This document shows, piece after piece, positions 9,078-44,477 of a DNA stretch of 64,000 nt. This stretch comes from Candidatus Woesearchaeota archaeon. GTDB lineage: Archaea; Nanobdellota; Nanobdellia; SCGC-AAA011-G17; PNOQ01. The notes below the pieces were generated by a model. The model ran no database searches, was not told the DNA's origin, and saw nothing but the letters and a program-made list of their open reading frames with translations. Both the position numbers and the translations under genes were made by a program. The first letter of the stretch is position 1; each line of letters opens with the position of its first letter. The DNA is taken from assembly GCA_964603065.1 (NCBI GenBank), contig CAZRTL010000002.1:11292-75291 (forward strand), in the 5' to 3' direction.

Positions 9078-9120
9078 TTTTATAAGCTTTTCTATATGTA
9101 ACTACTTAAAAGAAGTTAAT
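9078..9120 (-). promoter_or_regulatory. Conserved upstream element plus BRE/TATA, copy 1 (left half-site degenerate)
   Basis: Sense strand ATTAACTTCTTTTAAGTAGTTACATATAGAAAAGCTTATAAAA. Confidence 0.65.
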
Positions 9121-9123
9121 AAA

Positions 9124-9238
9124 CGCCGGGACTGGGATTTGAACCCAGACGCCCCGAAGGGCCTGGATTAGCAATTTCACCTTGAGAAACAATTATGTTA
9201 ACTCAATCCAGTGCAATACCAGATTATGCGATCCCGGC
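9124..9238 (-). tRNA. tRNA-Ser(GCT) with 32-nt non-canonical intron (9176..9207, position 30/31)
   Basis: Splicing restores CTGGA-TTGCTAA-TCCAG; long variable arm; G73; BHB-like central helix CACT:GGTG with GG|A and AA|A bulges, intron stem TTGAG:CTCAA. Confidence 0.9.
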
Positions 9239-9448
9239 ATATTAAGATTAATCTGGTAAACTAATCCATTACATTTTTCCAATCATTAAGCTTTTTTAAG
9301 AATTTCGGATTTTTAGGATTAATCTCTTTTTCCCATTTTAACAGTTTTTTCTCGCCAGCCAACATAAGCAATGATATCTTTTACAACTTCAAGAATAAGA
9401 TTTAAACTCAACATTAATTTAGAAATCTAGTTACAAATGGTTTATGCT

Positions 9449-9480
9449 CGTGCATGACAAGCTGTCAAGAACTAACTTTT
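9449..9480. repeat. Dispersed ~30-bp repeat with TGACA-AGC-TGTCA palindrome, copy A (copy B 44043..44072)
   Basis: CGTGCATGACAAGCTGTCAAGAACTAACTTTT vs CGTGTGTGACAAGCTGACAAGAAAACTTTT. Confidence 0.6.
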
Positions 9481-9525
9481 AAAATAAGTCATGTATTCTA
9501 AAGAATTTTCCATTTAACTAAAGCA

Positions 9526-9798
9526 TTACTCCAAATCTTCAAGTTTTACAGCAGGACCATGTAAAGCAACATTAATTCTTGCAGCCAAATTATCACTTAA
9601 GTGCATAATCGCTTCTGGGTCATTTTTAGTCAAATAAACTGTTACAGCTTTAGTATACAAACCTTCAAGTTCTTCAAATCTCTTATATTCTTCACTTCCA
9701 ACAGGGTATTCCTCTCTGTTTCTCCTAATATCAGATAAACAGGAAGCTCCCATTGCCATGATTTGTTCATTTGTGAATTCCATTTTTCTAGATATCAT
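9526..9798 (-). CDS. Hypothetical protein (ORFan) preceded by conserved upstream element
   Basis: 90-aa ORF. Confidence 0.65.
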   Translation of the reverse strand: MISRKMEFTNEQIMAMGASCLSDIRRNREEYPVGSEEYKRFEELEGLYTKAVTVYLTKNDPEAIMHLSDNLAARINVALHGPAVKLEDLE

Positions 9799-9811
9799 CT
9801 ATATATTCTAG

Positions 9812-9872
9812 TATATAAATCTTTCTATTATGTCACTACTCTAAAGAAATAACAAATAGAAAGCTTTATAAA
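9812..9872. promoter_or_regulatory. Conserved element copy 2, forming a symmetric bidirectional promoter
   Basis: TATA(rc)-BRE(rc)-TGTCA-N14-TAACA-AATAGAAAGC-TTTATAAA between divergent genes 9798(-) and 9903(+). Confidence 0.72.
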
Positions 9873-9902
9873 TATCAAAATTAAGGTATTTACTACTTTA
9901 AG

Positions 9903-10376
9903 ATGAAAAAGATAATAATTTTACAGGTCATAATTTTAATTTTACTAGCTGGTAATTTAGTGTATAGTTTTGATTTCAGCAATCCTTCTAATTTATTCAG
10001 GTCTAGTGAAGTTATTTCGCCAAAAGATAGGATAAATGAAGATCAAATTCACATATATGAAGATAAAATAGTAATTGATATTTCTGGAGCGACTTATGCT
10101 AAATATGCAAATACAAATTCAATGGATCCATTCTTAGATATGGAAGCGAATGGGATTGAAATAGTTCCTTCCTCAGAAGAAGAAGTCCAAATAGGAGATG
10201 TTATAACATATCAACCAGAATGGAGTGAAAACCTAGTAGTTCATAGAATAATCCAAACTGGAGAGGATGAACAAGGTTGGTATGCATATACCAAAGGAGA
10301 TAATTCATCTGTGATTGATCCTGGAAAAATTAGATTTGAACAAGTGAAGTACATACTAATAGGAGTGTTATATTAA
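9903..10376 (+). CDS. Signal peptidase I-like protein (S26, archaeal/Sec11 Ser-His type)
   Basis: TNSMDP, GDVITY, VHRII, TKGDN..D; N-terminal TM. Confidence 0.82.
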   Translation: MKKIIILQVIILILLAGNLVYSFDFSNPSNLFRSSEVISPKDRINEDQIHIYEDKIVIDISGATYAKYANTNSMDPFLDMEANGIEIVPSSEEEVQIGDVITYQPEWSENLVVHRIIQTGEDEQGWYAYTKGDNSSVIDPGKIRFEQVKYILIGVLY

Positions 10377-10637
10377 ATGAAAAAATTCAATCCAAAAACA
10401 ATGTACCGAGCTCCAATAGCTTCAAAAAGAGAGTATAGACCAATAGGAGAAATTCAAGTTAAATCATTAACTTTTGAAGCCCCTCCATATCAAAGAACTA
10501 CACCTCGTCCCAAAACAAAAAATACAATTATATTTCCAAAAACTTCAAGTCTTGATGAAGTAAGTTTTGATAAAGTAAATCTTGATGAATTAATAGGACA
10601 GATAAAAGAACAAATAAAAGGAGAAATTCTAAAATGA
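10377..10637 (+). CDS. Hypothetical protein
   Basis: 86-aa ORF abutting upstream stop. Confidence 0.6.
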   Translation: MKKFNPKTMYRAPIASKREYRPIGEIQVKSLTFEAPPYQRTTPRPKTKNTIIFPKTSSLDEVSFDKVNLDELIGQIKEQIKGEILK

Positions 10638-10741
10638 CCGAAGCTATATGTGAAAATTGTGGAGCAAGATACACTTTAAATGGAAAAGCACCAAACTTTA
10701 AATGTGTCTGTCAAAGCAAAACTTTCAAAATAAAAAAATGA
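10634..10741 (+). CDS. 35-aa Cys-rich (zinc-ribbon-like) microprotein missed by ORF track
   Basis: MTEAICENCGARYTLNGKAPNFKCVCQSKTFKIKK; ATGA overlap at both ends. Confidence 0.75.
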   Translation: MTEAICENCGARYTLNGKAPNFKCVCQSKTFKIKK

Positions 10742-11223
10742 ATCAATTAGAAGAGAGTTTTCAAAGGGCGAGAGAAAACCCTAAATATAGACAAGAATTT
10801 GTAGATGGACTAAAACTAGACAACCTTCCAATTAAAAAAATTAGGTATGTTCCTAAGCTAGGACTATTTAGTAGGAGAAGAAGTTTGATGACTACTTCCA
10901 GTGGGATTAATAGAGAATTAGAAGTAAAAGGGGGAAAATCAACCATAACAATTTATTCAAGTGCTTTTGATCATGCTTCAAACCTTGATGATTTCATGAG
11001 TATTTTGGAAGATCACGAAGGAATGCATGCAGAAGATAATCTACATTTCTATGAACATAGAACAGAAAAACGAGAACTTTTAGCCTACTATAATCAACTT
11101 AGACGTTTTGATGAAAGAGAGTGTTCACCCATAGTCATGAGGGTAATGGAAGAAAGATTCGAAGAACTTGGAGGGTTTGAAACACTAAGAGAACTTAATC
11201 ACCCATTTCCAGAATTAAATTAA
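10738..11223 (+). CDS. Putative zincin metallopeptidase (HExxH)
   Basis: DHEGMHAE plus downstream RELLAY; start moved to MNQLEE (ATGA overlap). Confidence 0.55.
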   Translation: MNQLEESFQRARENPKYRQEFVDGLKLDNLPIKKIRYVPKLGLFSRRRSLMTTSSGINRELEVKGGKSTITIYSSAFDHASNLDDFMSILEDHEGMHAEDNLHFYEHRTEKRELLAYYNQLRRFDERECSPIVMRVMEERFEELGGFETLRELNHPFPELN

Positions 11224-12003
11224 ATAACTAACTAACAATCCTAAAAAACATCCTGTCGATAAGTAAGGCATTGCAGGATAAAACTTATTCTTTTTACTTA
11301 AAAGCAACAATAAAAATAAAGCTATTGTAGTAAATAGAGAAACAATCAAAGCTTTGTAAAATCCTAAACTAACTAAAACAATCCCTGAAAATAATAAAGT
11401 AAATCCAATATCCCCTCCGCCAAGTATGGCAGTCTTTTTACCCTTGTTATAAGGAATTACCAAACCAGCAAACATCTTTGCCTTAGCTTGAAATTTAGCC
11501 ATCTTAACCATATGTTTAGTTTTCCAAACAGCAATCATATCATATATAGATATTAAAATCAATAATATCGAACCAGATAAAATACTCATTACAGGAGCAA
11601 ATACTGCCGCAATTCCACTATACACAAACATCTCCACAAAATTATGTATAATTACATTGGGTCTAAAAAATTTCAATATACCAAATATTAAAGCCAAACC
11701 TAATGCCCACATCTGAGTCATAAAAGATGAAAAGGCTATTCCTAACAAATAAACGGTTGCAAAAATAAACCAAATCTTCCATAACTTCATAGCACCAAAC
11801 TTCATTAATAATAAAACTAATCCGGTGGCAAATAAAATGGCGATTATCAAAGGAATATAGCTAACACTTTCATTCAATTCAGGTCTTTCAATTCCATAGG
11901 GTAATTCTTCGGAAATATATTGCTGAGTAATAAACAATCCCACAAAATGGGCCAAAAAAAATAAGACGGCTATAACGATAGTAACTCCTAATGTGTGTTT
12001 CAT
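11215..12003 (-). CDS. Presenilin/SPP-family intramembrane aspartyl protease
   Basis: ISIYDM (YD), LGGGDIG (GxGD), YPAMPYL (PAL-like); multi-TM. Confidence 0.92.
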   Translation of the reverse strand: MKHTLGVTIVIAVLFFLAHFVGLFITQQYISEELPYGIERPELNESVSYIPLIIAILFATGLVLLLMKFGAMKLWKIWFIFATVYLLGIAFSSFMTQMWALGLALIFGILKFFRPNVIIHNFVEMFVYSGIAAVFAPVMSILSGSILLILISIYDMIAVWKTKHMVKMAKFQAKAKMFAGLVIPYNKGKKTAILGGGDIGFTLLFSGIVLVSLGFYKALIVSLFTTIALFLLLLLSKKNKFYPAMPYLSTGCFLGLLVSYLI

Positions 12004-12054
12004 AATTTTAAATAAAGAAAAACATTTAAATAATTAACTATCTCCAATAAAAAA

Positions 12055-12792
12055 ATGTCAATACTATTATATATAATGTTGAGTGTATTAATCGTAAGCT
12101 TAATCTCTTTAATAGGGATAATAACATTAAGCTTTTCAAATAAATTACTAAAAAAATCACTACTTTTCTTAGTAAGTTTCGCAGCTGGAGCCTTACTAGG
12201 AGATGTCTTCATCCACCTACTTCCAGAAATAGTTGAAGAATTAGGTTTTAATTTAAGCATAACATTTGGAATATTAATTGGAATATTATTATTTTTTATA
12301 TTAGAAAAAGTATTACATTGGCACCACTGCCATGATCAAGATTGTTTAGTACACAATAAACCTTTGGCTGCGATAAATTTAATTGGAGATGCATTTCACA
12401 ATTTTTTAGATGGAATTTTAATAGCAGGGTCATATTTGGTTAGCATACCCTTAGGAATAGCAACAACAATTGCAGTTCTTTTCCACGAAATACCACAAGA
12501 AATAGGAGATTTCGGAATTTTACTACATACCGGTTTCTCAAAAGCAAAAGCATTATTCTATAATTTTTTAATTTCACTAACAGCTCTTGCCGGAGCAGTT
12601 CTAACTTTTTTTATAGGACCTTTAATAGAGAATTTTACACATTATATAATTCCAATAACAGCAGGAGGGTTCATATATATTGCTGCTTCAGACCTAATTC
12701 CAGAATTGCATAAAGAAACAACTCTCTCAAAAAGTATATTATCAATAGTAGGAATAATTTTAGGAATATTTGTTATGTTCTTACTTAGATGA
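12055..12792 (+). CDS. ZIP family divalent metal transporter
   Basis: HLLPE, HWHHCH, DAFHNFLDG, FHEIPQEIGDF, DLIPELH. Confidence 0.95.
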   Translation: MSILLYIMLSVLIVSLISLIGIITLSFSNKLLKKSLLFLVSFAAGALLGDVFIHLLPEIVEELGFNLSITFGILIGILLFFILEKVLHWHHCHDQDCLVHNKPLAAINLIGDAFHNFLDGILIAGSYLVSIPLGIATTIAVLFHEIPQEIGDFGILLHTGFSKAKALFYNFLISLTALAGAVLTFFIGPLIENFTHYIIPITAGGFIYIAASDLIPELHKETTLSKSILSIVGIILGIFVMFLLR

Positions 12793-13098
12793 TCTATTGT
12801 GTAACTCTTCTAAGAAATGCTTATCATAAAATTTTAAATTTTCTCCATAACGTGACATAAACTCTTCACCTTCATCAATCAAATAACTGGGGATATTTTT
12901 ATACCTTTTCTTACATTCAAGCATCAATTCATCAAATTTCTTTATAGGATGTTCATCATCTTCAATATCGGTTATTTTTATAATTTTCCACTCAAGAGCC
13001 CAAGCCCGATCCACCAGATTTTGAAGTTCATCAACTTTCGATTCTGGTATACTTTCCTTAAAATTAATAAAATCCAATATGTCTTGTTTAAATCCCAT
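12781..13098 (-). CDS. Hypothetical protein
   Basis: 105-aa ORF with its own TATA-like promoter near 13125. Confidence 0.6.
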   Translation of the reverse strand: MGFKQDILDFINFKESIPESKVDELQNLVDRAWALEWKIIKITDIEDDEHPIKKFDELMLECKKRYKNIPSYLIDEGEEFMSRYGENLKFYDKHFLEELHNRSSK

Positions 13099-13697: not shown

Positions 13698-13781
13698 TCC
13701 TTTTACTACTTACCAATTACACCAAACCAAAAGCTTTATAAATAACTTAAATATCCTACTAATCCATAAGGAGAATGAAAA

Positions 13782-14555
13782 ATGATATTAAATCAACAAT
13801 TCCTAAAAAAGTTAAGGTCAGCGTTCAATTTGAACGAGTATGAAGTTAAAATATGGACGGCTTTACTAAGCAAAGGTTCAGCATCAGCTGGAGAACTGTC
13901 CGATATTGGTAATGTACCAAGATCAAGAGCATATGATATTCTAGAATCCTTAGAAAAGAAAGGATTTATCGTAATGAAATTGGATAAACCTATCAAATAT
14001 TTAGCCGTAGAGCCTAAGGAAATCATAAATAGAGTTAAAAAAGACGTACAAGAGAAAGCAAACCAGCAAATAGATATGATCTCAGAACTAAAAGGTACCG
14101 AAGTATTTAATGACCTAAGTAAGTTATTTACACAAGGTATTGATAACGTAGACCCTACGACAATAACAAGTTCAATTAAAGGTAGAAAAAATATCTACAA
14201 TCAAATTGAAACAATGCTAAGATCTGCTGAAAAAACTGTTGTTATTTCAACTACAAAAGAAGGATTTGAAAGAAAATTTGAAAGTTTCAAGTTTTTATTC
14301 AAAAAATTAAAAGACAAAGGAGTAAAAGTTAAGTTAATGACTCCTGAAAAAGTTGATGACAAAGATGCTAAAAATGTTTTACAAACAAAGGTCATGCCTG
14401 AAGTCAACTCAAGATTTATTTTGGTTGATAACAAAGAGCTTATGTTCATGTTAACAGATAATAGCGTTGAAGACAAATTAGATGTAGCTGTTTGGGTAAC
14501 AAGCCCTTATTTTGTAAACGCTATGAATAGTATGGTTAATTTAACTTTAAAATGA
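13782..14555 (+). CDS. TrmB family transcriptional regulator
   Basis: FNLNEYEVKIWTALL, VPRSRAYDILESLEKKGF, KYLAVEP wHTH; C-terminal PLD-like effector domain (SRFILVDNKE). Confidence 0.92.
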   Translation: MILNQQFLKKLRSAFNLNEYEVKIWTALLSKGSASAGELSDIGNVPRSRAYDILESLEKKGFIVMKLDKPIKYLAVEPKEIINRVKKDVQEKANQQIDMISELKGTEVFNDLSKLFTQGIDNVDPTTITSSIKGRKNIYNQIETMLRSAEKTVVISTTKEGFERKFESFKFLFKKLKDKGVKVKLMTPEKVDDKDAKNVLQTKVMPEVNSRFILVDNKELMFMLTDNSVEDKLDVAVWVTSPYFVNAMNSMVNLTLK

Positions 14556-14908
14556 AAACGGCAATAAAAATACTAACTTTAGCTGCAGGATTAAGCGCTT
14601 TAGTTTTAGCAGAAGGTTGTTCAAAATACAAAGAAGAAGAATTATTACGAAGGCAAACCCGAAAAGAATTAAAAATAGCTTTATCAAAAATAGCTGGAGA
14701 CGATTATATTCTTAGTCCACAAGAATCTGGAGATTTTCTAACAGATATGGGCTTCAATGTAACATTCAGAGAAGGAAGAGATAGGGGAGTTGAATATGCC
14801 CCCGGAATTGGAAAAGTACGCGTTTATATAGATCGACATAATGGCGGAAATCCTAAAATTGGAGAATTAACTTTAGAACAACTTAAGCAATATAATGCTT
14901 CTGATTAA
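14552..14908 (+). CDS. Hypothetical lipoprotein-like protein
   Basis: Hydrophobic leader ending LAEGC; ATGA-coupled to trmB. Confidence 0.55.
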   Translation: MKTAIKILTLAAGLSALVLAEGCSKYKEEELLRRQTRKELKIALSKIAGDDYILSPQESGDFLTDMGFNVTFREGRDRGVEYAPGIGKVRVYIDRHNGGNPKIGELTLEQLKQYNASD

Positions 14909-14910
14909 TA

Positions 14911-14954
14911 TTGTCATTTCTTTTAAGTAGTTACAAAACAAAAGCTTTATAAAT
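14911..14954 (+). promoter_or_regulatory. Conserved upstream element plus BRE/TATA, copy 3
   Basis: TTGTCATTTCTTTTAAGTAGTTACAAAACAAAAGCTTTATAAA. Confidence 0.72.
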
Positions 14955-14990
14955 TTGAAAAAACCTATAAAATTACCAAAATGGGTTAAA

Positions 14991-15968
14991 ATGACCGAAA
15001 TAAGAAGAACAAATGCAAACGGAATTTCTTATCATTTAAATAAAACTACAGATAATAGCAGGTATGAACTTCAATTAAAATTTGATACAAAAAGTCAGTC
15101 TTTAACAGAAATGGGAGAAGTTCTCGTTCTGACAAAAAAGTTAGAAGCAGAAGGGAAACACAAAGTTGAGATTTCAGCAACCCACACACATGATCAGAAT
15201 AAAATTACAATAAGATATGATACTTCAAACCTAAGAGGATCAAGAGAAAAAAGGAGTGCGACTGCAGTTCATTCTTTACTACATTTACTCGAGGAATTAG
15301 ACTGGTCAGGAAAAGTTGCAATGCCAAAAGTTTCTAATTTTAAGAGTCAGCTTTATGATTTAATAAACACTTACACTAAAAGAGAAGAAATTCTCGAAAA
15401 AGCTGAGAAAAAATTAGATGAAGAAGTAAGTAAACCTGCAACAACAGCATTAATAACTCCAGAATTAGCAGATGTTTATAGGAGAGGAAATCCAGTACAG
15501 GATTGGGAATTTAGATTTTTAAAACCAGAGCAACACTGGGGATTAACAAGAAGAACGCTATCTTGGAAAGATTTTCAAAGAAAATTAGATTCCGGATTAG
15601 AAAAACTAGCACCCGAAGATATATCGGAAGAAGAATTTAATAGACAGTTTACAGATTTCCAAAAACAAATGGAAACTCTAGGAAGTAATAGTTACTATAT
15701 GGCTCATATGTTGGGCTGGATTGTAGTATACAGCGAATATGCAGAAAGACGCGATAAAGCTCAAGAAGCTGGAAATGAAATTGAGGCCCAAGGACAAGAA
15801 GCACATTTAGACGTACTAAGTTTTCAAATGGAAGAATTAACTACGGCAGGTAAAAGGTACGCCGAAGATAAGTGGGAAGTTAAGTACCCTACAGATGAAA
15901 GGACTGGAGAAGAGCCAATAAGAAGACTTATAAGCAATATTCCAAAGACAAGAGAACTGAAAAAATGA
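14991..15968 (+). CDS. Hypothetical protein, probable distant paralogue of 16344..17225
   Basis: TTG at 14955 abuts the TATA box, so start moved to ATG 14991; WG-x7-WKxxQxKLD motif. Confidence 0.65.
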   Translation: MTEIRRTNANGISYHLNKTTDNSRYELQLKFDTKSQSLTEMGEVLVLTKKLEAEGKHKVEISATHTHDQNKITIRYDTSNLRGSREKRSATAVHSLLHLLEELDWSGKVAMPKVSNFKSQLYDLINTYTKREEILEKAEKKLDEEVSKPATTALITPELADVYRRGNPVQDWEFRFLKPEQHWGLTRRTLSWKDFQRKLDSGLEKLAPEDISEEEFNRQFTDFQKQMETLGSNSYYMAHMLGWIVVYSEYAERRDKAQEAGNEIEAQGQEAHLDVLSFQMEELTTAGKRYAEDKWEVKYPTDERTGEEPIRRLISNIPKTRELKK

Positions 15969-16303
15969 AACAAACTACATTGCTCCAAATTTTCGATGGG
16001 AAGGTAACTTTAAGAGAATTTATTGGAGATAAAGGATATATATTAGGATTAAAAACAAGTCCTTTAGAAAGATCTACACTATCTAAAAAAGAGTCCGCAA
16101 TTCTTATGTTAAGTTATAAAGAATTATTTGATGAAGCTCCAGAAAATGTAACCGAATTAAGAGATAAGGGGTTACAGTCAATAATTCGCCAATTGAAAGG
16201 AGTAAAATATCCCACTTTAGGTGAAAAAAGAGTAAAATCGGCATTAGCTGAATTAATAAATTCTAAAGATAATTATAGAAGCGAAATAGATCAATATTTA
16301 TAA
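15965..16303 (+). CDS. Hypothetical protein
   Basis: 112 aa, ATGA-coupled. Confidence 0.6.
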   Translation: MKQTTLLQIFDGKVTLREFIGDKGYILGLKTSPLERSTLSKKESAILMLSYKELFDEAPENVTELRDKGLQSIIRQLKGVKYPTLGEKRVKSALAELINSKDNYRSEIDQYL

Positions 16304-16343
16304 TTACATTAGTTTTAAATATTTTACTTAACATACTATTTTT

Positions 16344-17225
16344 ATGAAACAAGAATTTGAAACAATAGTAGATTTTTTCAGTCACACATCAAATTATAGG
16401 TTTGAATTTGATAAGGTTAAGGGAGATTATTTTCTAAGTTTAACTTTGAGAAGAAGTTCATTCTATTGCGGAATTTCATATGTTCTCTTTTACAATAGGT
16501 TTGAAATGCTAAAAAACAAATATCTTCCAGATGCAAAAATTGATTTATATGATTCTTTGCAAAGTCCAAGGTGGATAAGGATAAATTTATCGGGAAAAGT
16601 TCAATCACAAAATGAGTTAGTCTGCTTAACTGATTTATTAGAAGAAACAACCCCATTTTTATCAAATATTAGCAAAGATACTTTAGCAGGTCTGGCAGAA
16701 AAAATTAAAGAAAAATCCGAGTTAGAAGAACAACATAGCCCTGCCCAACTTTTAGAAGAACTAGAAGAACTTGCATTAAACACATTGGATTGGGGGGAAA
16801 TAAAACAATCTCAAAATTGGAAGATCATTCAAGAGAAATTAGATAGGGAAGAAGGAGCCTTTATTTGGTGGGATGAAGAAGATTATTGTCCAGAGTGTTA
16901 TGACAAATATTACCGAGATTATGAAGGTTTATTACTACCCAACATGTCAGTAGAAGAAAAATTAGAATTAGCAGAAAGAACAGGAAGTTGGAACAATTTT
17001 CAAGAACAGGTCGATGATGAAATACTAGACCTTCCTAGCTACATTGACTGGGATGAGGAAGACATATGCCAAGAGATATATTTTTCATATTTTTTGGACG
17101 AATTAGATGGATTAGCTAAAGAAAATAGTTTATTAGAATTTGCTATAAGATCAGGAAATAAAAAAATGTTTACGAGGGCAAAAGGTAGAATAGCAACCAT
17201 AAAAGAAAGAATACAAAGATATTAA
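16344..17225 (+). CDS. Hypothetical acidic protein with internal 60-aa repeat
   Basis: WDEEDYCPECY and WDEEDICQEIY 180 bp apart. Confidence 0.65.
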   Translation: MKQEFETIVDFFSHTSNYRFEFDKVKGDYFLSLTLRRSSFYCGISYVLFYNRFEMLKNKYLPDAKIDLYDSLQSPRWIRINLSGKVQSQNELVCLTDLLEETTPFLSNISKDTLAGLAEKIKEKSELEEQHSPAQLLEELEELALNTLDWGEIKQSQNWKIIQEKLDREEGAFIWWDEEDYCPECYDKYYRDYEGLLLPNMSVEEKLELAERTGSWNNFQEQVDDEILDLPSYIDWDEEDICQEIYFSYFLDELDGLAKENSLLEFAIRSGNKKMFTRAKGRIATIKERIQRY

Positions 17226-21107: not shown

Positions 21108-21362
21108 ATGAAAAAATCGACACTAATAATGATAGGAGCATATATAGTATCTTCAATAGCTACGGGTAGATTCATAGAAAATCGTTTGGAGCGTGTAGCG
21201 AACGATCAGACTATAGAAAAAGAAAACACAACCTCTTCTCTTGGATACGCCCCGGGGATGGGTTACTTATGCACATTTGGATTAGGAGGGTTCCCTTTGA
21301 TATTAGGATTTAAATTTAGAGAGATGTATGAACAACGTAGAGATGCCCATAGGAATCTCTAA
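21108..21362 (+). CDS. Hypothetical membrane protein
   Basis: 84 aa, two hydrophobic segments. Confidence 0.55.
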   Translation: MKKSTLIMIGAYIVSSIATGRFIENRLERVANDQTIEKENTTSSLGYAPGMGYLCTFGLGGFPLILGFKFREMYEQRRDAHRNL

Positions 21363-21658
21363 AACTTAAACAACTTCTTCTCAAAATCAACTATCTTCCC
21401 ATCAACAACAAAAACACCTTCTTCTTTTAACATTTTAATTTTATTTTTAGGACCAGAAGCAAAACCTCCAATCCCTCCATTAGAAGAAACAACTCTATGA
21501 CAGGGGACTTCAGGAGCATAAGGATTTTTATTCATAGCATTTCCAATGGCCCGATAAGCCTTACAATTCAAAGCATGAGCCAATTCTTTGTATGTGCTAA
21601 CTCTGCCTTTAGGAATTCTTCTACATACTTCATAAACTCTTTCATTAAAGCTTTTCAT
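21359..21658 (-). CDS. ogt: Methylated-DNA-protein-cysteine methyltransferase (MGMT), single-domain
   Basis: IPKGRVSTYKELA, RAIGNAM, VPCHRVV. Confidence 0.92.
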   Translation of the reverse strand: MKSFNERVYEVCRRIPKGRVSTYKELAHALNCKAYRAIGNAMNKNPYAPEVPCHRVVSSNGGIGGFASGPKNKIKMLKEEGVFVVDGKIVDFEKKLFKF

Positions 21659-23528
21659 TTTCAAAATTAAGATTTATTCTTCCAGTATTTCTCCTCTGTT
21701 CAGGGTGTTTGATATCATGAAATAGCCTAGCATAATGAGAAACAACTCTTTTTAGTTCATCTCTGTTAACCAAATGATCAATATATCCATTTTCATACAA
21801 CATATCTGTACAAACAACATTTCTATCAACTTCTAAGCCTGCTCCAGTAACTACTCTTGGACCTGCAAACTCAGCTAAACTCCCTCTTTCTCCAATCATG
21901 ATATCTCCCTGTGTAACATAACTAGCGTAAGCCCCTCCAGTAGTAGGTTCTGCAATAATAGAAATATAAGGAATACCCTTACTCTTCAAATCTAACAAAG
22001 CCATGTTAATTTTTGCCATTTGTGCTAATGACATAGGACCTTCCTGCATTCTAGCTCCTCCAGAAGAACAAACTGAAACCAAAGGTAACTCTTCTTTTAT
22101 TGCAACGTCCACTATTCTTTTGAACTTCTCGCCATAAATGGAGCCAAAACTTCCACTAATAAAATCAATATCTGAAATGGCAAAAGCAACACCTTTACCG
22201 TTTATTTGACCAGTTCCAATAACCAAACTATCCTTAGAAAATCCTCTTTTCTCTCCTTTTTCTAATTTTACTCTATAAGAATCTGTCAAATATCTTTCAT
22301 TCCCTACAAGGTTTTCCAAATTTAAATTATGCTCAACCTCTTCAAAAGTACCTTCATCACATAACTTAGCTAAATGTTCTTCTGCTCCAAGTAATTCGCC
22401 TTTCCCACATTCTGGACAAGCATGAAAATTATTTTCATAATCATCAAAAGATTTCATACCGCAGCCCCCAGCAACCCTAAATTTACCTTCCTGTTCATTC
22501 CATTCTTTCTCACATAAAACAACTTGTCGGTCTTTTATATTTCTGTTTTCTAAATGTTCTTTCCTTAATTGAGATATAAAACTATCACCTGTTTCAACAT
22601 CTATAACTTTTCCAGATACATCCTCTTTTCTTTTCCTCTTAAATTTACCTTTAACAATTCTCTTAAGAGTCTGCAAGGAATTTTCAAAGCTACCATAATT
22701 TAGAACTTTATCTCTTCTCTCTTTTACTAATCTATTCACAGTTTTATTTGTTATTCTTTTTTCATCTGTTTTCTTATCAACATTTACCCATTCATTCAAA
22801 GTTTCAACCAAGGTTTCCCTAATCATATTTATTGTATTTTCATAATTAGTATGTGCACCCTCATCTGGTTCAGAAAGAATTTCATCAACCATTCCGACTT
22901 CCATTAAATGTTCGGCTCCAGGTTGTAATACTTCTAAAGCACTCTCCACTAAATTTTCTAAATTTTCTCCTTCTTGTAATCTTTTATTAAAAATAATTCT
23001 TGCACAACTCTCTGGAGCAATTACAGAGTATAAAGCATTCTCAAACATAAAGGATTTATCCGCAACTTGCATAGCCAAGGCCCCTCCGCTACCCCCCTCA
23101 CCAATAACATAAGAAACAGTAGGAGTTTTTACTTCACAAAATCTTCTTATACAATCTGAAATATTAAAAGATTGACCTTCTATCTCAGATTTCATACTAG
23201 CATCTCCGCCAAATGTATCAATAAACGAAATAATTGGAATTTTATGCTCCTCGGCCTCTTTTAATATATCAAGAACATAATTATAACCCTCAGCAGTTAT
23301 CATTCCTGTTGCCTTACTATCTTTTCCTTCTCTTCTCTTCTCTTGGCCCAAAATTATGCACCTAATTCCGTCCATATAACCTTTAACCGCAACTAATGAA
23401 GGATCGGGAGATTCATAGTATATCGGGTTATCAACAATATTTTCAATAATATCCGAACTTCTTATTCTTGAAGGATGTCTTGTTAACTCATATCTCTCTT
23501 TTAAAGACTTAAGCTCTTTTTCTCCCAT
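21645..23528 (-). CDS. Bacterial-type acetyl-CoA carboxylase carboxyltransferase, AccA-AccD fusion
   Basis: N-half AccA (FIDTFG, GEGGSGGALA, YSVIAPES, GAH); C-half AccD (CPECG, GSFGSIYGEK, SSGGARMQEG, PTTGG, FAGPRV); start moved to MGEKEL. Confidence 0.9.
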   Translation of the reverse strand: MGEKELKSLKERYELTRHPSRIRSSDIIENIVDNPIYYESPDPSLVAVKGYMDGIRCIILGQEKRREGKDSKATGMITAEGYNYVLDILKEAEEHKIPIISFIDTFGGDASMKSEIEGQSFNISDCIRRFCEVKTPTVSYVIGEGGSGGALAMQVADKSFMFENALYSVIAPESCARIIFNKRLQEGENLENLVESALEVLQPGAEHLMEVGMVDEILSEPDEGAHTNYENTINMIRETLVETLNEWVNVDKKTDEKRITNKTVNRLVKERRDKVLNYGSFENSLQTLKRIVKGKFKRKRKEDVSGKVIDVETGDSFISQLRKEHLENRNIKDRQVVLCEKEWNEQEGKFRVAGGCGMKSFDDYENNFHACPECGKGELLGAEEHLAKLCDEGTFEEVEHNLNLENLVGNERYLTDSYRVKLEKGEKRGFSKDSLVIGTGQINGKGVAFAISDIDFISGSFGSIYGEKFKRIVDVAIKEELPLVSVCSSGGARMQEGPMSLAQMAKINMALLDLKSKGIPYISIIAEPTTGGAYASYVTQGDIMIGERGSLAEFAGPRVVTGAGLEVDRNVVCTDMLYENGYIDHLVNRDELKRVVSHYARLFHDIKHPEQRRNTGRINLNFENEKL

Positions 23529-38344: not shown

Positions 38345-38734
38345 TTATTCAAAAAGATTTTCTAAAATATGGAAAAATTTTTTTCCCTCTTTCTGAGAAA
38401 AGTTGTCATTCCATAATTTATCATAATATCTACATTTTTCTCCATCTAATGGAGGTTCAGAAGCAATACTTAAAACCATTACATAAGGTCTTGACAATTG
38501 TTTTAATGAAGGCCTTTTTGCACAATCTTCATCTTTTTTAGTACTATGATCTGGAGAGAAATGCCATTTTCCACAAAATAATAAAGCATAAGATCCATCT
38601 GACATAACAAAATTAGTAGAATATTCCGTAAAATAAGGGTTTTGTCCCTTATCCCAACTATTTTTTCTCACCTTATCTACTATTTTGAGACCAGATGTTA
38701 TATCCTCAATAGAATATTCAGAATTTTTTCCCAT
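38345..38734 (-). CDS. Hypothetical protein (ORFan) preceded by conserved upstream element
   Basis: ATG start at 38734 fits TATA spacing. Confidence 0.6.
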   Translation of the reverse strand: MGKNSEYSIEDITSGLKIVDKVRKNSWDKGQNPYFTEYSTNFVMSDGSYALLFCGKWHFSPDHSTKKDEDCAKRPSLKQLSRPYVMVLSIASEPPLDGEKCRYYDKLWNDNFSQKEGKKFFHILENLFE

Positions 38735-38762
38735 TTTTCCCACAATACAAAATCGATGCCCG

Positions 38763-38806
38763 TTTATAAATTTTTCTATATGTAACTACTAATCAAAAAT
38801 AACAAA
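38763..38806 (-). promoter_or_regulatory. Conserved upstream element plus BRE/TATA, copy 4
   Basis: Sense strand TTTTGTTATTTTTGATTAGTAGTTACATATAGAAAAATTTATAAA. Confidence 0.72.
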
Positions 38807-38826
38807 ATAAGAAAAAAAGAAAGGAA

Positions 38827-40110
38827 TTATTCCTTCTTAACTAAGTCAATACACATACCTGCTGCAACTGTCTGACCTGCATCTCTAATAGCAAATCTTG
38901 ACATTTGTGGTATTTCACCTTGTTTTTCAATAACTAAAGGTTTTGTAGGAACGATTTTTACAATTGCTGCATCTCCATTCTTTAGCATATCTGGATTCTC
39001 TTCAATAACTTCACCAGTTGCTGCGTTAATTTTCTTAACTAACTCAGTAATTTGGCAAGCTACTTGAGCTGTATGTATGTGGAATACCGGAGTATATCCA
39101 ACAGTCAGTACGCTAGGATGGTTTAATACAACAATTTGTGCTGTAAATTCCTTTGCTAAGGTTGGTACATTATCAGATTTTCCTAGAACATCTCCTCTAG
39201 CGATATCTTTCTTACCAATTCCCCTTACACCAAAACCTACATTATCTCCAGGAATTGCTTCTTGGATTTGTTCGTGGTGCATTTCAATAGTCTTACATTC
39301 TCCTGAAACACCTTTACCTTCTCTACCCGGTACAACAGTAACTTTGTCCCCTACCTTCATAGTTCCAGTTTCAACTCTTCCAACAGGTACAACTCCAATA
39401 CCAGCGATGTTATACACATCTTGAATTGGCAACCTTAATGGAAGTCCAGTTGGTTTTTCAGGTTCAGTAAATACGTCTAATTGTTCTAATAATGTTGGAC
39501 CAGTGTACCAAGCCATCTTTTCAGATTTCTTAGCGATATTATCTCCTTCTAGAGCACTTGCCGGAATAAAAGCAACTTGGTCAGGATTATATCCAACAGT
39601 TTTTAATAAGTTAGATACATCTTCCTTAACTTTATTATACTTATCTTCAGCAAAATCAACAGTATCCATTTTATTAACTAAAACAGATATTTGATTAACT
39701 CCAAGAGTTTTACACAAGAATACGTGTTCTTTAGTTTGTGCCATAACAGAATCTGTAGCAGCAACAACTAAAACACCTACATCAGCTTGACTTGCTCCTG
39801 TAATCATGTTCTTAATAAAATCTCTGTGTCCAGGTGCATCAATTATAGTATACTCAAACTTAGATGTGTTGAATTTCTTATGACTTAAATCAATAGTAAC
39901 TCCTCTTTCTCTTTCTTCTTTTAAGTTATCCATAACAAATGCGAACTCAAATCCACCTTTTCCAAGCTCTTCAGCTTTTTCTTTCAGTTTTCTCATTGTT
40001 TGTTCATCAATATTTCCAGAATCAAACATCAATCTACCTACAGAAGTGGACTTACCGTGGTCAACGTGACCAACGAATACAATGTTTACGTGTGGTTTTT
40101 CTTTAGCCAT
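38827..40110 (-). CDS. tuf: Translation elongation factor EF-1alpha
   Basis: [36 protein letters not shown]. Confidence 0.99.
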
Positions 40111-40183
40111 TATTATTCCTCCATAAATGAATATTAATTAGATATGAGAAAAATTACCCATTTATAAAGGTTTCTACTGAAAA

Positions 40184-40573: not shown

Positions 40574-40837
40574 CTATTCATTTTGAGGAAAATACTTCCA
40601 TTCACAAAAAATACACTTCTCTTTTCTACTACGGGCTCTACAATAACCTTCCCTGTCAGCAACTTCTGACCTAGGTGTAAAATAGTCGCACATGACTCCA
40701 AAAGGCTCTAAATCTGCATTAAATTTAACAAGCACTTCTAAAACTCCTTTATTTACATCTGATTCAGACACATTCTCATTCAATCTAGAACATTTTACAA
40801 CCTTTGTACTTTCTGATTCTTCCATTTTTCCCTCCAA
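40574..40837 (-). CDS. Small Cys-rich hypothetical protein
   Basis: 87 aa, five Cys including CIFC; GGAGGG SD. Confidence 0.6.
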   Translation of the reverse strand: MEGKMEESESTKVVKCSRLNENVSESDVNKGVLEVLVKFNADLEPFGVMCDYFTPRSEVADREGYCRARSRKEKCIFCEWKYFPQNE

Positions 40838-40873
40838 ATTACCTAAGAAAGAGAATAAAGTAAAATATTAAAA

Positions 40874-43039
40874 CTATTCGTTTTCGCCCAAACCTTTCCT
40901 AGTTCTAATCTTCTTAATAACTTCAGCTTTAAGATTGACAGGCAAAGTTTCGAACATTTGATCGACTAAATACTGGCTACCACGACCAGAAGTTACACTC
41001 CTAAGCTCAGAAGCAATTCCAAACATTTCAGCCACAGGAAGTTTAGCTTTGACAGAGATATGCTCTCCTTGTTGATCAACATTAATTAATTGTCCTCTCT
41101 TATTCTGAATCATAGTACTTAAATTACCTAAAAATTCAGATGGACTATCAAATTGCATAATTTGAATAGGTTCTAAAATACTTGCACCAGCCGACATCAT
41201 GCTATTTTTAATAGACTCCCTAATTGCAGGATAAACCTGAGCAGGACCTCTATGAATGGCATCTTCATGAAGTTTCATATCCATAATTCTAATTCTCATT
41301 TTAGCACAAGGTTCCCTTGCCAATGGACCAGCGTTTATAACTTGTTGAAACCCATCCATAATCATTTCAATAACCTCTCCAATATGAACAACTCCTCTGG
41401 TATCATCAACCATAACATTTCCTTTGTAAATATATCTATATCTTTGAGCAGACTTAGTATCCAAACCAAGTTCAACCAATTTACCAACAACCACTGGATC
41501 TTTTTTCTTTACTCTTCCTTCTGGTAATTCACCAGATTTAATAGCTTCATAAATATTATCTTCTAAAGGTTCAACAACAATATAGAACTTATTATGTTTA
41601 TTTGGACTTTTTCCTTCTTCTTCATTCCCGGTTTTTGTTGCAGTTTCTCTATAAACAACAATAGGAGGACTAGTTTTAACATCCAATCCTTTTTCTGATT
41701 TAATTCTATTCTCAATAATTTCTAAATGTAATTCACCCATTCCACTAATCAAGTTCTCCCCTGTCTCTTCATTAATTTCAACTTTAATACTTGGATCCTC
41801 TTTTCCAACCTGCCTTAAAACTTCAATTAATTTAGCTAAATCGGCTGCTTTATTAGCTTCAATAGATTTAGTAATAACTGGTTCAAATATATGTTTAATT
41901 TCTTCAAAGGGCATCATTGGAACTGTAGAAACAGTCTCTCCAGCAAAAGTATCTCTTAATCCCACTAAACCAACTATATTTCCACAAGGAATTTCATCCA
42001 TCATAGTTCTTTGTGAACCTTTGTAAATAGAAACTTGTTGTAATCTAACTTTTTTCTTAGCCATATTCAAGTAAATTTCGTCTCCTTGCCTAACAGTTCC
42101 AGAAAATAATCTTCCTGTTGCAACTTCACCAGCATGTTTATCCACAACAATTTTAGTAACAATCAAACCAACATTTCCCTTAGGATCACAATTAACCAAT
42201 GCTTTACCCTCAGAACTGTCAACATCCCCATGCCAAATTTTAGGAATTCTATATTTTTGAGCATCAACAGGATTAGGATGATGTTTAATACTCATATCTA
42301 AAACAACTTCATGAATTGGAGCTTTTTTTGCCAATTCTTTCTGAGTTTCGTTTTCATAAGCATCTATAATATCTTTAAATGTAATATTATTCTTTTGCAT
42401 GTAAGGTAAACTTATTCCCCAATTATGAAATGCAGAACCAAAAGCCACAGAACCATCTTGAATATTAACTTTCCACTTCTCTTTCAAATCTTCAGGAGCA
42501 ATTTGTTCTATGAACTTATTAATATGAGTAATGATATCAACAAATTTTTGCTGCATAGCTTCGGGAGTTAATTTAACTTCTTTGATTAATCTATCAACTT
42601 TATTAATAAATAAAACTGGTTTAACTCTTTCTCTTAAAGCTTGTTTCAAAACAGTTTCAGTCTGAGGCATAATACCTTCAACAGCACAACATAAAACTAC
42701 TGCACCATCAACAGCTCTCATAGCCCTAGTAACATCCCCTCCAAAATCAACATGACCAGGAGTATCAATCAAGTTAATTAGAAAATCTTTATCATCAACA
42801 GTGTGTAGCATAGAAACGGATGCAGAATCAATAGTAATTCCTCTTTCAGATTCATCAGCGTGGAAATCTAAAGCTCTTTGTTCACCTGCTAACTCTTCAG
42901 AAAGCATTCCAGCACCAGCTAATAAATTATCAGAAAATGTTGTTTTACCGTGATCAATATGCGCACTAATAGCGATATTCCTTATAAATTCTGGAGTATC
43001 CATGATTTTATGAATATTTTCAGTTATTTTATCTGCCAT
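40874..43039 (-). CDS. fusA: Translation elongation factor EF-2 (archaeal)
   Basis: AHIDHGKTT, ERGITI, DTPGHVDF, diphthamide loop HEDAIHRG. Confidence 0.99.
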   Translation of the reverse strand: MADKITENIHKIMDTPEFIRNIAISAHIDHGKTTFSDNLLAGAGMLSEELAGEQRALDFHADESERGITIDSASVSMLHTVDDKDFLINLIDTPGHVDFGGDVTRAMRAVDGAVVLCCAVEGIMPQTETVLKQALRERVKPVLFINKVDRLIKEVKLTPEAMQQKFVDIITHINKFIEQIAPEDLKEKWKVNIQDGSVAFGSAFHNWGISLPYMQKNNITFKDIIDAYENETQKELAKKAPIHEVVLDMSIKHHPNPVDAQKYRIPKIWHGDVDSSEGKALVNCDPKGNVGLIVTKIVVDKHAGEVATGRLFSGTVRQGDEIYLNMAKKKVRLQQVSIYKGSQRTMMDEIPCGNIVGLVGLRDTFAGETVSTVPMMPFEEIKHIFEPVITKSIEANKAADLAKLIEVLRQVGKEDPSIKVEINEETGENLISGMGELHLEIIENRIKSEKGLDVKTSPPIVVYRETATKTGNEEEGKSPNKHNKFYIVVEPLEDNIYEAIKSGELPEGRVKKKDPVVVGKLVELGLDTKSAQRYRYIYKGNVMVDDTRGVVHIGEVIEMIMDGFQQVINAGPLAREPCAKMRIRIMDMKLHEDAIHRGPAQVYPAIRESIKNSMMSAGASILEPIQIMQFDSPSEFLGNLSTMIQNKRGQLINVDQQGEHISVKAKLPVAEMFGIASELRSVTSGRGSQYLVDQMFETLPVNLKAEVIKKIRTRKGLGENE

Positions 43040-43088
43040 ATTTATTTAACCTTCATTAATATAGTCAAACTTGGATTGGACTCTCTTT

Positions 43089-44003
43089 TTAAAGTTTACG
43101 TTTTAATTTTCTCTTAAATAAATGATTTTTTAATCTACACCACTTTTCAGTATTTTTTTCAAATAAAATTAGTGATTTTTTCAAATCTCTCACTCTCATA
43201 GAAATTCTATGTCTCCCATATTTATCAGATTTTTTATTAATGTGAGGATCAAATCCTAATTCAACAAGCATCGAATATACTTCTTTGATAAATCTTCCAT
43301 TTTTTAACATCAAAGAAACATGGCCATTATCTCTAGCAACTGAACCATCAAACATAAAAATTCCTCTCAAAAAAGCAATTTTTATATTTTTACTTGAATT
43401 TTTTATATATTCGGGAATAATAAAAATCTCTGTTTTACGGCCAACCGGCATTTTTAAAATTTTGCTAAAAAATTCAAAAATAACTCTATTGCTAATATAA
43501 ACCTCATAATGATTTTTTCTATCCTTTGGTGTTATTCCATATTCAAAGCAATGATTAAACCAATCACAAAAAGATTCTACTGCTCTCTGATATTCTTCTC
43601 TTAATACTAACTCATATCTAATGCAATCCCTATTATGTCTTTTTGAATTTCTTGTTCTCAAATGACCATCGGCCAAATGTGCTCCAATAATTTTTGCCAA
43701 CCTTACATCTAGTTTTTTAGGGAATTTAATTAATTTCATATCCCAATAACTCTCAAAATAATTTATATCGCTTGAAAAATCAATATTATATTTCTCTTTT
43801 AGTATCTTAAAAAATTTTAAAGGTATAGATCTTCTCCTATTCAACCATCTCCACAAAGTTCCTGGAATTATTTTCATATCTTTAGAAATATCTTTCTTTT
43901 TAAATGGAGATATTGCTTCTATTATTTTTTTATTAAATTCTTCATTAACTAAAACTTTAACGGTATTATCATCTGGACACATATCATAAATATTAAATTC
44001 CAT
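43089..44003 (-). CDS. Free-standing LAGLIDADG endonuclease-like protein with N-terminal HTH
   Basis: Two motifs IIGAHLADGH and FLRGIFMFDGS; HTH-like KKDISKDMKIIPGTLWRW. Confidence 0.85.
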   Translation of the reverse strand: MEFNIYDMCPDDNTVKVLVNEEFNKKIIEAISPFKKKDISKDMKIIPGTLWRWLNRRRSIPLKFFKILKEKYNIDFSSDINYFESYWDMKLIKFPKKLDVRLAKIIGAHLADGHLRTRNSKRHNRDCIRYELVLREEYQRAVESFCDWFNHCFEYGITPKDRKNHYEVYISNRVIFEFFSKILKMPVGRKTEIFIIPEYIKNSSKNIKIAFLRGIFMFDGSVARDNGHVSLMLKNGRFIKEVYSMLVELGFDPHINKKSDKYGRHRISMRVRDLKKSLILFEKNTEKWCRLKNHLFKRKLKRKL

Positions 44004-44042
44004 AAGATAAAAATATAAAAATTAGTTTATAAACAATTTCCC

Positions 44043-44072
44043 CGTGTGTGACAAGCTGACAAGAAAACTTTT
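44043..44072. repeat. Dispersed ~30-bp repeat, copy B (copy A 9449..9480)
   Basis: CGTGTGTGACAAGCTGACAAGAAAACTTTT. Confidence 0.6.
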
Positions 44073-44074
44073 GC

Positions 44075-44404
44075 TTAATTGTATAAAGGTCTTCCTTCAA
44101 AATGAATCAGATAAACTAACTCTCTAACACGATCCCTTACTTTTGGTTGGTCTGCATCGGCATAACTTAAACCGTGATAGTTTAACCAGTGTTTATTATC
44201 AGAAAAATCTTTTATTTTACCTTCCAAAAATCTAGAATCTTCTTCGTTCAAAAAACCAATACCCCATCTTGCCCACTTACCTTCTTCTTTTTCTAAAACT
44301 CTCTTTCCAGTAAAGGGAATAACATCTGCAGGTTCTTTTCTAATTGGAATTATTTTTCTTTCTCCAAAACCCAGGATATCTTTAATATTAATTATTTCTG
44401 CCAT
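44075..44404 (-). CDS. Hypothetical protein (ORFan) preceded by conserved upstream element
   Basis: 109-aa ORF. Confidence 0.6.
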   Translation of the reverse strand: MAEIINIKDILGFGERKIIPIRKEPADVIPFTGKRVLEKEEGKWARWGIGFLNEEDSRFLEGKIKDFSDNKHWLNYHGLSYADADQPKVRDRVRELVYLIHFEGRPLYN

Positions 44405-44432
44405 CTTTCTTTAAATTATAATATATTATACC

Positions 44433-44477
44433 CTTTATAAATCTTTCTATTTGTAACTACTGAATAAAAACAACAAA
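44433..44477 (-). promoter_or_regulatory. Conserved upstream element plus BRE/TATA, copy 5
   Basis: Sense strand TTTTGTTGTTTTTATTCAGTAGTTACAAATAGAAAGATTTATAAAG. Confidence 0.72.

Follow-up and report, generated by a model that had tools for sequence, protein, structure and literature searches.

A promoter-fused palindromic operator in Woesearchaeota and related archaea and its candidate TrmBL2-like regulator

The sequence analyzed here is a 64-kb stretch of DNA (64,000 nucleotides, hereafter the window) from a Candidatus Woesearchaeota archaeon (GenBank assembly GCA_964603065.1, contig CAZRTL010000002.1, positions 11,292 to 75,291). It contains exactly five copies of a short module, in which a 24-bp imperfect palindrome is placed directly next to the transcription factor B recognition element (BRE) and the TATA box of a downstream gene. 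We propose, with a probability of roughly 0.6, that the module is the operator of a TrmBL2-like regulator encoded at 13782-14555 (+) of the same window, probably autoregulated, which is fused to an ordinary archaeal promoter. As far as genome sequences tell, the operator is conserved across a class of uncultivated archaea labelled Woesearchaeota, Pacearchaeota and Nanoarchaeota.

Results

Five discrete module copies in the window

The five modules listed by a first-pass annotation of the window were all recovered with an offset of at most 1 nt. For the exact 10-mer AGTAGTKACA, the window has five occurrences where 0.19 would be expected, a count that was not reached in any of 100 dinucleotide shuffles. 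When a 34-nt position weight matrix (PWM) built from the five copies was scanned over the 64 kb, the copies scored 37-39 bits and the runner-up site, which is the reverse strand of copy 3, scored 13.6 bits. Because of this large gap, the set of copies is discrete, with no degenerate tail. All five are intergenic and share an identical orientation toward the BRE/TATA and the downstream ATG, which lies 30-45 nt further on.

In copy 1, the operator at 9097-9120 (-) consists of the distal half ATTAACTTCT, the spacer TTTA and the proximal half AGTAGTTACA. It begins 4 nt past the 3' end of a tRNA-Ser, and its BRE/TATA at 9079-9096 (-), TATAGAAAAGCTTATAAA, drives the open reading frame (ORF) 8743-9039 (-), a 98-aa ORFan. 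The operator of copy 2, TGTTATTTCT-TTAG-AGTAGTGACA at 9831-9854 (-), is common to two divergent promoters: the BRE/TATA on the minus-strand side, TAATAGAAAGATTTATATA at 9812-9830 (-), drives a 90-aa ORFan, 9526-9798 (-), and the BRE/TATA at the other end, AATAGAAAGCTTTATAAA at 9855-9872 (+), drives the gene 9903-10376 (+). Copy 3 (TGTCATTTCT-TTTA-AGTAGTTACA, 14912-14935, +) continues into the BRE/TATA AAACAAAAGCTTTATAAA at 14936-14953 (+) and is followed by a 325-aa ORFan, 14991-15968 (+), the first gene of a block reaching 17225. Copy 4 (TGTTATTTTT-GATT-AGTAGTTACA, 38781-38804, -; BRE/TATA TATAGAAAAATTTATAAA, 38763-38780, -) precedes a 132-aa ORFan, 38345-38743 (-), situated between the EF-1alpha and PPIase/S10 genes. 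This operator lies directly 3' of the EF-1alpha stop codon, to which it is joined by the T-rich tract TTCCTTTCTTTTTTTCTTATTTTGTTATTTTTG at 38805-38830 (-), and its own T-rich distal half may double as a terminator for the upstream gene. Copy 5 (TGTTGTTTTT-ATTC-AGTAGTTACA, 44452-44475, -; BRE/TATA AATAGAAAGATTTATAAA, 44434-44451, -) precedes a 109-aa ORFan, 44075-44404 (-), and 34 nt separate its distal end from the start codon (ATG) of 44510-44977, a divergently oriented SNase gene.

Cores with one mismatch were considered as extra sites and rejected, since the six that were found correspond to the chance level and lie in coding sequence or lack a correctly spaced BRE/TATA (e.g. 12056-12065). 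A core with one mismatch, AGTAGTTAAA at 49708-49717 (-), stands directly 5' of the ATG of the ABC ATPase gene 49030-49707; it has no BRE/TATA at the usual distance and is probably due to chance. No further site was found in the 10 kb past the window start. Nor did we find any RNA family explaining the repeats; Rfam sees only two tRNAs in the window.

A 24-bp inverted repeat coupled to an ordinary promoter

The specific part of the module is the 24-bp imperfect palindrome TGTAACTACT-N4-AGTAGTTACA. A strong half is usually combined with a degenerate half, which in this genome reads TTGTyrTTTyT, and the gap between the operator and the BRE is fixed at 3-4 nt. For a scan of species-representative genomes (one genome per species), the pattern contained only the core and the BRE/TATA, so that the upstream bases were left free. 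At 116 sites of other genomes, these unselected bases gave the consensus T(-12), Y(-9), A(-7), Y(-6), T(-5). The upstream consensus is the reverse complement of the core, and the element is therefore a 24-bp imperfect palindrome. In the same direction, the reverse-complemented upstream 10-mer agreed best with AGTAGTTACA at a 4-nt spacer, with 5.26 of 10 positions matching versus about 3 at other spacings. Written as T..Y.AYT-N4-AGTA, the consensus shows an inverted repeat on TACT/AGTA half-sites, and the imperfect dyad TGTnr-N14-TkACA described in the first-pass annotation turns out to be the outer rim of this 10-N4-10 inverted repeat.

The 3' 15-18 nt of the module, RAAARnTTTATAAA, represent the generic BRE/TATA of the organism, with the BRE AGAAAG and the TATA box TTTATAAA, which are of the ordinary archaeal type; all copies fit RAAAnnnTTATAWA in their 3' part. 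The earlier description of a module that abuts the BRE/TATA is thus right about the adjacency, but the 3' part taken by itself is ordinary promoter consensus, which also occurs without the core. Among the 14 consensus BRE/TATA sites in the window, the core is present at five and absent from nine, the TrmB promoter being one of the nine, which rules out a generic promoter identity for the operator part.

The reciprocal pattern, that is, the operator without BRE/TATA, was used for a metagenome scan, in which the contig of the window itself was not among the matches. It gave 44 unique sites on AT-rich contigs, 20 of them accompanied by a correctly spaced BRE/TATA (seven on the right, seven on the left and six on both sides), compared with a background of 0.25% per side for the same promoter pattern at random positions. 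At the sites of other genomes the ATG lies mostly 23-25 nt past TTATA; since this distance fits leaderless mRNAs, the operator would be located at about -63 to -40 relative to the transcription start.

Spread across genomes and the downstream proteins

Operator plus BRE/TATA was found in at least 118 loci of the species-representative genomes, and among the matches listed, 88 are labelled Woesearchaeota, Pacearchaeota or Nanoarchaeota. Across these loci, which are designated here by L and a number, the promoters sit to the right of the operator, to its left or on both sides. The density of cores is low in many genomes, with approximately nine extra cores in the 800 kb of loci. In the distant relatives L230-L233, the promoter of the TrmB gene is the sole clear intergenic site, save for one more operator-like site in L231.

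The 151 downstream proteins from all genomes fall into 133 clusters, which rules out a common family among them. Matches to only 48 Pfam families were found among 146 downstream proteins, and the 25 families listed for these proteins include no ribosomal one. Sugar-related targets are few (GT2, GH15 and UDP-glucose dehydrogenase); these occur in other genomes, and none of the five window ORFans belongs to them. Four other genes of the window, those for the SNase, the ABC ATPase, NusA and S12, were followed in other genomes, and none has relatives that are consistently next to an operator.

Strict adjacency to a near-consensus BRE/TATA, class-wide conservation and heterogeneous downstream functions could also be expected if the upstream part extended the core promoter and were recognised by a basal factor (for example a paralogue of TFB or TBP, or TFE), in which case the module would mark a class of strong or leaderless promoters and no regulon. 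We consider this very improbable, because the dyad symmetry and the use from either side fit a dimer and not an asymmetric basal factor. Such an element would also have to be reconciled with a core at only five of the 14 consensus promoters of the window, with the missing ribosomal families, with the low core density given above and with the few or no cores in the 14-21 kb around distant TrmB genes.

Some occurrences lie outside the expected taxa. On contigs of about 50% GC (L130, L145, L153, L213 and L216), the operator-like palindrome TGTAGTTTCT-CATC-AGTAGTTACA stands beside a reversed BRE/TATA, and the same contigs also encode a relative of the window ORF 21359-21664 with 62-64% identity; the element may extend past the AT-rich Nanoarchaeia. 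The canonical operator with BRE/TATA is also present on contigs filed as Omnitrophota, Nomurabacteria and Peribacteria metagenome-assembled genomes (MAGs; L057, L069 and L071), and on 17 loci titled 'uncultured Methanosarcinales', in some of which (L108 and L115) the ribosomal and RNA polymerase proteins share 50-70% identity with those of the window. The loci with these four labels are probably mis-binned contigs or mislabelled MAGs. In L201, three operators were found within 13 kb.

The bidirectional operator at the signal peptidase I gene

The first-pass annotation had placed the element upstream of ORFans and before no housekeeping gene. The former description applies to all five copies, and the five downstream genes indeed give no match in Pfam or NCBIfam. 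It is nevertheless incomplete, and the latter was mistaken: the plus side of copy 2 faces 9903-10376 (+), whose product is an archaeal signal peptidase I of divergent sequence (TIGR02228, E 6.5e-11, 42.3 bits, under the 51.85-bit cutoff), and the TrmB gene has a sixth, weaker site in its promoter. The signal peptidase I family is the sole large cluster among the downstream proteins. An operator is present in the promoter region of its gene in the window and in seven other loci, on the right or on the left side, and the proteins of these seven loci are 35-77% identical to the window protein.

An extra strong half-site, ATTTACTACT, is found at 9888-9897 (+), 6 nt before the signal peptidase ATG and near the expected transcription start. 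It could be a second, repressive position, and an equivalent is not obvious in the L045, L079 and L099 relatives. In L079, TGTAACTACT at 4081-4090 (+) abuts the TATA box TTATAAAT before the gene 3603-4037 (-). This is the opposite arrangement, in which the BRE position is occupied, and it would suggest repression at that promoter.

The TrmB-family gene and the site in its promoter

The gene 13782-14555 (+) encodes a TrmB-family regulator of 257 aa, which contains the winged helix-turn-helix and only the N-terminal part of the effector domain, an architecture like that of TrmBL2. It matches Pfam TrmB (E 6.8e-19) and Regulator_TrmB, as well as the NCBIfam TrmB and TrmBL2 models, the latter two well under their equivalog cutoffs. 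Its best match in the PDB is TrmBL2 (5BPD, E 3.4e-16), with TrmBL2 residues 6-184 aligned. We found neither a C-terminal sugar-binding subdomain in this protein nor sugar-metabolism genes among the five window targets. The family is very large, with more than 7,800 matches at E <= 1e-20 and many relatives at 50-90% identity; residues 8-78, which form the winged helix-turn-helix, are almost invariant, and the C-terminal half is variable. One helix has the invariant motif VPRSRxYD. The protein is the sole recognisable transcription factor in the window, where no Lrp/AsnC gene was recognised, and TrmB is the sole transcription-factor family among the 25 listed downstream families, barring apparent chance bacterial matches.

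The weaker, sixth operator is located at 13701-13724 (+) in the promoter of this gene, with a strong distal half, TTTTACTACT, and a weak proximal half, AATTACACCA, followed by the BRE/TATA at 13729-13742. In 10 of 11 further loci with a TrmB relative, an operator or a half-site stands at a conserved distance from the BRE of the TrmB gene itself. Full or near-full operators were found in L201, L207, L230 and L231, and the distal half-site TTACTACY, 17-18 nt from the BRE, in the window, L197, L176, L219, L079 and L234, and weakly in L232; L233 has a half-site at the proximal position instead. With the window counted, such a site, suggestive of autoregulation, is present in 11 of 12 TrmB promoters, the one in L232 being weak and the half-site of L233 lying elsewhere.

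ACTACY at the same distance occurs in 29 of 180 promoter-like sites without a core on their own strand, and 21 of these are the other face of known operators; among the remaining eight half-site-only promoters, five belong to TrmB genes. A half-site PWM made exclusively from distal halves of other genomes ranked the five copies first to fifth in the window and the TrmB promoter site sixth. The proposal of the first-pass annotation that the TrmB gene near copy 3 encodes the regulator therefore gains comparative support from the sites kept in TrmB promoters.

Site turnover between close relatives

In L197, whose TrmB protein is 89% identical to that of the window, the bidirectional operator at the signal peptidase gene is kept. 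The whole 14552-17225 block, copy 3 included, is missing there, and the relative of ORF 8743-9039 begins 41 nt past the tRNA-Ser, leaving no room for copy 1. In L234, a relative of 14991-15968 at the equivalent position has a TATA box only and no operator. In the closest relative (TrmB 91% identical), for which only a gene map was compared, other small genes occupy all four operator-ORFan places. Judging from these neighbourhoods, sites are gained or lost between close relatives. As they are kept at the TrmB and signal peptidase genes and vary elsewhere, the regulon would consist of a small conserved core and a turning-over, lineage-specific periphery, which is comparatively large in this genome.

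Turnover of this kind raises the question of a mobile or copy-pasted promoter cassette (duplicated, or resembling a miniature inverted-repeat transposable element) that switches on newly acquired genes, one of the two readings left open by the first-pass annotation. Besides the absence of copies 1 and 3 before related genes in L197 and L234, and the position of copy 3 at the head of a block that L197 is without, it could draw on the ORFans at insertion hot spots in the conserved S12-S7-EF2-EF1alpha-S10 and TrmB-pheS neighbourhoods. It could also draw on L089 (4607-5682), where two operator-promoter units about 1 kb apart have about 40 nt of upstream flank in common and unrelated downstream proteins, which looks like a local duplication of a promoter region. 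However, the similarity among the window copies ends exactly at the module, with a pairwise identity of 0.76 for the operator, 0.63 for the BRE/TATA and 0.29-0.41 for the flanks (40 nt on each side); the N4 spacers also differ (TTTA, TTAG, TTTA, GATT and ATTC for copies 1-5), and there are no terminal repeats or target duplications beyond the dyad of the operator. Moreover, the site is kept at the same genes although the proteins of the loci are only about 35-60% identical, and retention at such diverged genes argues for selection on function and not for recent copying. We therefore consider a mobile cassette extremely improbable, even though sites do turn over.

The window ORFans have few relatives. 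Searches of the five against PHROGs and PADLOC gave borderline single matches only (E ~0.01). The 8743-9039 product has the relative in L197 already mentioned, at 35% identity, and a separate homologue search for it found none. The 9526-9798 product is fast-evolving, with a remote homologue at the equivalent position of L219 (phmmer E 3.4e-5). For 14991-15968, two remote relatives at 34% (L234) and 27% identity were found among 1.84 billion representative proteins, and for 44075-44404 a single homologue at 55% identity among 5.8 billion protein clusters, located upstream of EF-2 at the equivalent position in a close relative. AlphaFold2 models of ORFans were poor (predicted local distance difference test scores of 53 and 41), and Foldseek found nothing similar in the PDB at E <= 0.001.

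Host contig and other features of the window

The proteins of the window were located on a 262-kb JGI metagenome contig, 3300009008 Ga0115649_1000033, of a DPANN archaeon (class Nanoarchaeia). The window DNA has a GC content of 31%, and its genes are archaeal, including those for the RNA polymerase A subunit, an L7Ae-type protein, NusA, S12, S7, EF-2, EF-1alpha, S10, PheRS and ThrRS, along with many small ORFs without family assignment. The relatives of the window proteins, and likewise those of the motif, carry the labels Woesearchaeota, Pacearchaeota, Nanoarchaeota or Nanoarchaeia.

The tRNA next to copy 1, at 9124-9238 (-), is an intron-containing class II tRNA that scores 44.2 bits in Rfam and was missed by ARAGORN. 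By eye, it looks like a tRNA-Ser(GCT) whose anticodon loop is interrupted, at a non-canonical position, by an intron of about 31 nt; in L197 and L219, the related genes for tRNA-Ser(GCT) measure 85 nt and are intronless. Directly upstream of EF-2, 43089-44003 (-) is a free-standing ORF of 304 aa resembling a LAGLIDADG endonuclease, and it matches best the endonuclease parts of intein-containing proteins. This ORF is missing from the closest relative, and in L233 an intein is found within the EF-2 gene itself. Between 44500 and 59360, the usually contiguous S12-S7-EF2-EF1alpha-S10 cluster is split, with about 15 kb from S7 to EF-2. Among the genes in this gap, one encodes a protein of 1787 aa, another a protein of 525 aa that matches DUF362 weakly, and an ABC/FtsX-type transporter is also encoded there. 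Three further genes separate EF-1alpha from S10.

Discussion

The site in the TrmB promoter, the match of the inverted repeat to TACT/AGTA and the invariant winged helix-turn-helix together make the TrmB-like protein the best candidate, and 13782-14555 most likely binds the operator. A homodimeric winged-helix regulator would bind the 24-bp palindrome, and if this is the TrmBL2-like protein, the weaker site in its own promoter would provide autoregulation. From its position directly upstream of the BRE, the dimer could modulate the recruitment of TFB and TBP, either at a single promoter or at a divergent pair. Activation is favoured, only weakly, from the analogy to Tgr/TrmBL1 and Halobacterium TrmB; the near-consensus BRE/TATA and the repressor and chromatin role of TrmBL2 could point to repression or a roadblock instead. 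The predicted regulon core would comprise the regulator and the signal peptidase I gene, together with the small partner gene that diverges from the latter, and the periphery would comprise rapidly turning-over, small, lineage-restricted cytosolic proteins. Among the readings of the first-pass annotation, that of one regulator with a scattered set of genes is thus the one favoured by the dimer-type palindrome, the fixed spacing, the class-wide conservation and the footprints at signal peptidase I genes.

Several observations weigh against a TrmB operator of this kind. All links between the operator and the TrmB protein are comparative. The distal half of the window copies themselves reads TTYT and not TACT, and the strong-half consensus was partly imposed by the search patterns, which is an ascertainment effect. 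In most close relatives, the TrmB promoter has no more than a half-site. The half-site PWM is weak, as the maxima of shuffled windows averaged 12.9 and reached 15.8 compared with 14.4-15.5 for the real copies; since shuffles score similarly, only the ranking and the position carry weight. In the distant relatives L230-L233, there are few or no further sites within 14-21 kb. The near-consensus BRE/TATA of the operator promoters argues against a need for activation, and TrmBL2, the closest solved relative, is known chiefly as a repressor and chromatin protein whose sequence specificity is weak.

The anatomy and conservation evidence is independent of the identity of the regulator, and a site in the TrmB promoter speaks for membership in the regulon and not for authorship. 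The element could accordingly be a genuine operator of a dimeric factor, in which the TrmB gene is merely a target and the factor is another conserved small DNA-binding protein of the Nanoarchaeia, which might go unrecognised among the many family-less small ORFs. We regard this as unlikely, albeit a serious competitor. TrmB is the only recognisable transcription factor of the window and, apart from the chance matches noted above, the only such family among the 25 listed. Its promoter is the one most consistently occupied across genomes, and the TACT/AGTA half-sites fit the preference of the TrmB family, in which the winged helix-turn-helix is nearly invariant.

The closest solved relative being TrmBL2, the protein might instead be mainly architectural, acting as a roadblock, like Thermococcus TrmBL2, which positions SMC at tens of loci, or as an insulator between transcription units. 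In T. kodakarensis, TrmBL2 brings Smc-ScpAB to discrete sites and sets a domain boundary (PMC11840125). In the window, copies 1, 3 and 4 come directly after co-directional upstream genes or a tRNA, where a T-rich distal half could aid upstream termination. Nevertheless, the rigid 3-4 nt spacing to the BRE/TATA, on either side, is predicted by an interplay with TFB and TBP and not by a boundary element, and no cluster of sites was seen near dif or a boundary-like locus. We therefore think that a mainly architectural role is improbable.

A more far-reaching possibility, which we put forward as doubtful speculation, is that the TrmBL2-like protein and its operator form the main class-wide, gene-specific circuit of the reduced Woesearchaeota, Pacearchaeota and Nanoarchaeota genomes, recruiting fast-evolving, lineage-specific small proteins and signal peptidase I. 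If so, the motif would be a genomic marker of a symbiosis or host-interaction programme in these uncultivated archaea. As an alternative to such a circuit, the sites could double as CTCF-like chromosome roadblocks.

In the literature searched on DPANN promoters, TrmB and regulons, we found no description of this motif or of any regulon of Woesearchaeota, Pacearchaeota or Nanoarchaeota, and a literature search with the core 10-mer returned unrelated matches only. The present set would therefore be a first predicted regulon for these groups, which are almost entirely uncultivated and in which most small genes are without known function. Genome scans for the operator could group ORFans into one co-regulated set, and the prediction can be addressed without cultivation by means of recombinant protein and existing metatranscriptomes. 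It also offers a case study of a regulon with a small conserved core, whose sites are gained and lost between close relatives.

Comparison with known systems

Autoregulation, as suggested here, has been proposed for MalR. The nearest parallel at the level of the regulon is the Tgr-TrmBL1 system of the Thermococcales, in which the palindromic operator of a TrmB-family dimer, the TGM (TATCAC-N5-GTGATA), is likewise placed relative to the BRE/TATA and in which a global regulon covers tens of promoters, with TrmBL1 listed as autoregulated (PMC4158304). The element described here differs in its half-site and spacing (10-N4-10) and in its rigid, often bidirectional fusion to the BRE at 3-4 nt. Its targets are signal peptidase, the regulator and ORFans, not glycolytic or gluconeogenic genes, the candidate regulator is without the C-terminal sugar-binding subdomain, and the host is a DPANN archaeon.

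Published TrmB-family operators comprise TACT-N3-AGTA, TACT-N7-8-GAGTA and TATCAC-N5-GTGATA; sites upstream of the BRE/TATA activate, and a lone TACT half-site is enough at one promoter, mdxE (PMC4158304). The last case parallels the half-site-only TrmB promoters reported here. With TrmB of P. furiosus and T. litoralis (TACT-N3-AGTA) and TrmB of H. salinarum (VNG1451C, TACT-N7-8-GAGTA), which activates from upstream of the promoter (PMC4158304), the present operator has the inner TACT...AGTA in common, as TACT-N4-AGTA. In contrast to theirs, its spacer is 4 nt and its half-sites extend to 10 nt (TGTAACTACT), and neither sugar-related window targets nor a full effector domain are found.

TrmBL2 of the Thermococcales resembles the candidate regulator most closely, as it is the closest solved relative, both proteins have about 260 aa and the effector domain is truncated in both. 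TrmBL2 has been reported on coding as well as intergenic DNA (PMC4158304), whereas the operator proposed here would be sharply defined and tied to promoters. Another similarity, in the position of the site directly upstream of the BRE, is seen with Ptr2, the analogy drawn in the first-pass annotation. This Lrp-family regulator of Methanocaldococcus has its activating sites just upstream of the BRE and presumably acts on the recruitment of TBP and TFB; in contrast to it, the present element is a single 24-bp dyad, and no Lrp-family regulator is implicated.

Taken together, the module is of a known kind, a TrmB-family operator upstream of BRE/TATA. What appears to be new is the promoter-fused, often bidirectional 10-N4-10 site, the presumed TrmBL2-like regulator, the predicted regulon of a secretion enzyme, the regulator and ORFans, and the DPANN host. 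With the candidate, the TrmBL2-like branch, known otherwise for binding of a chromatin-like kind, would gain a member that is sequence-specific and coupled to promoters.

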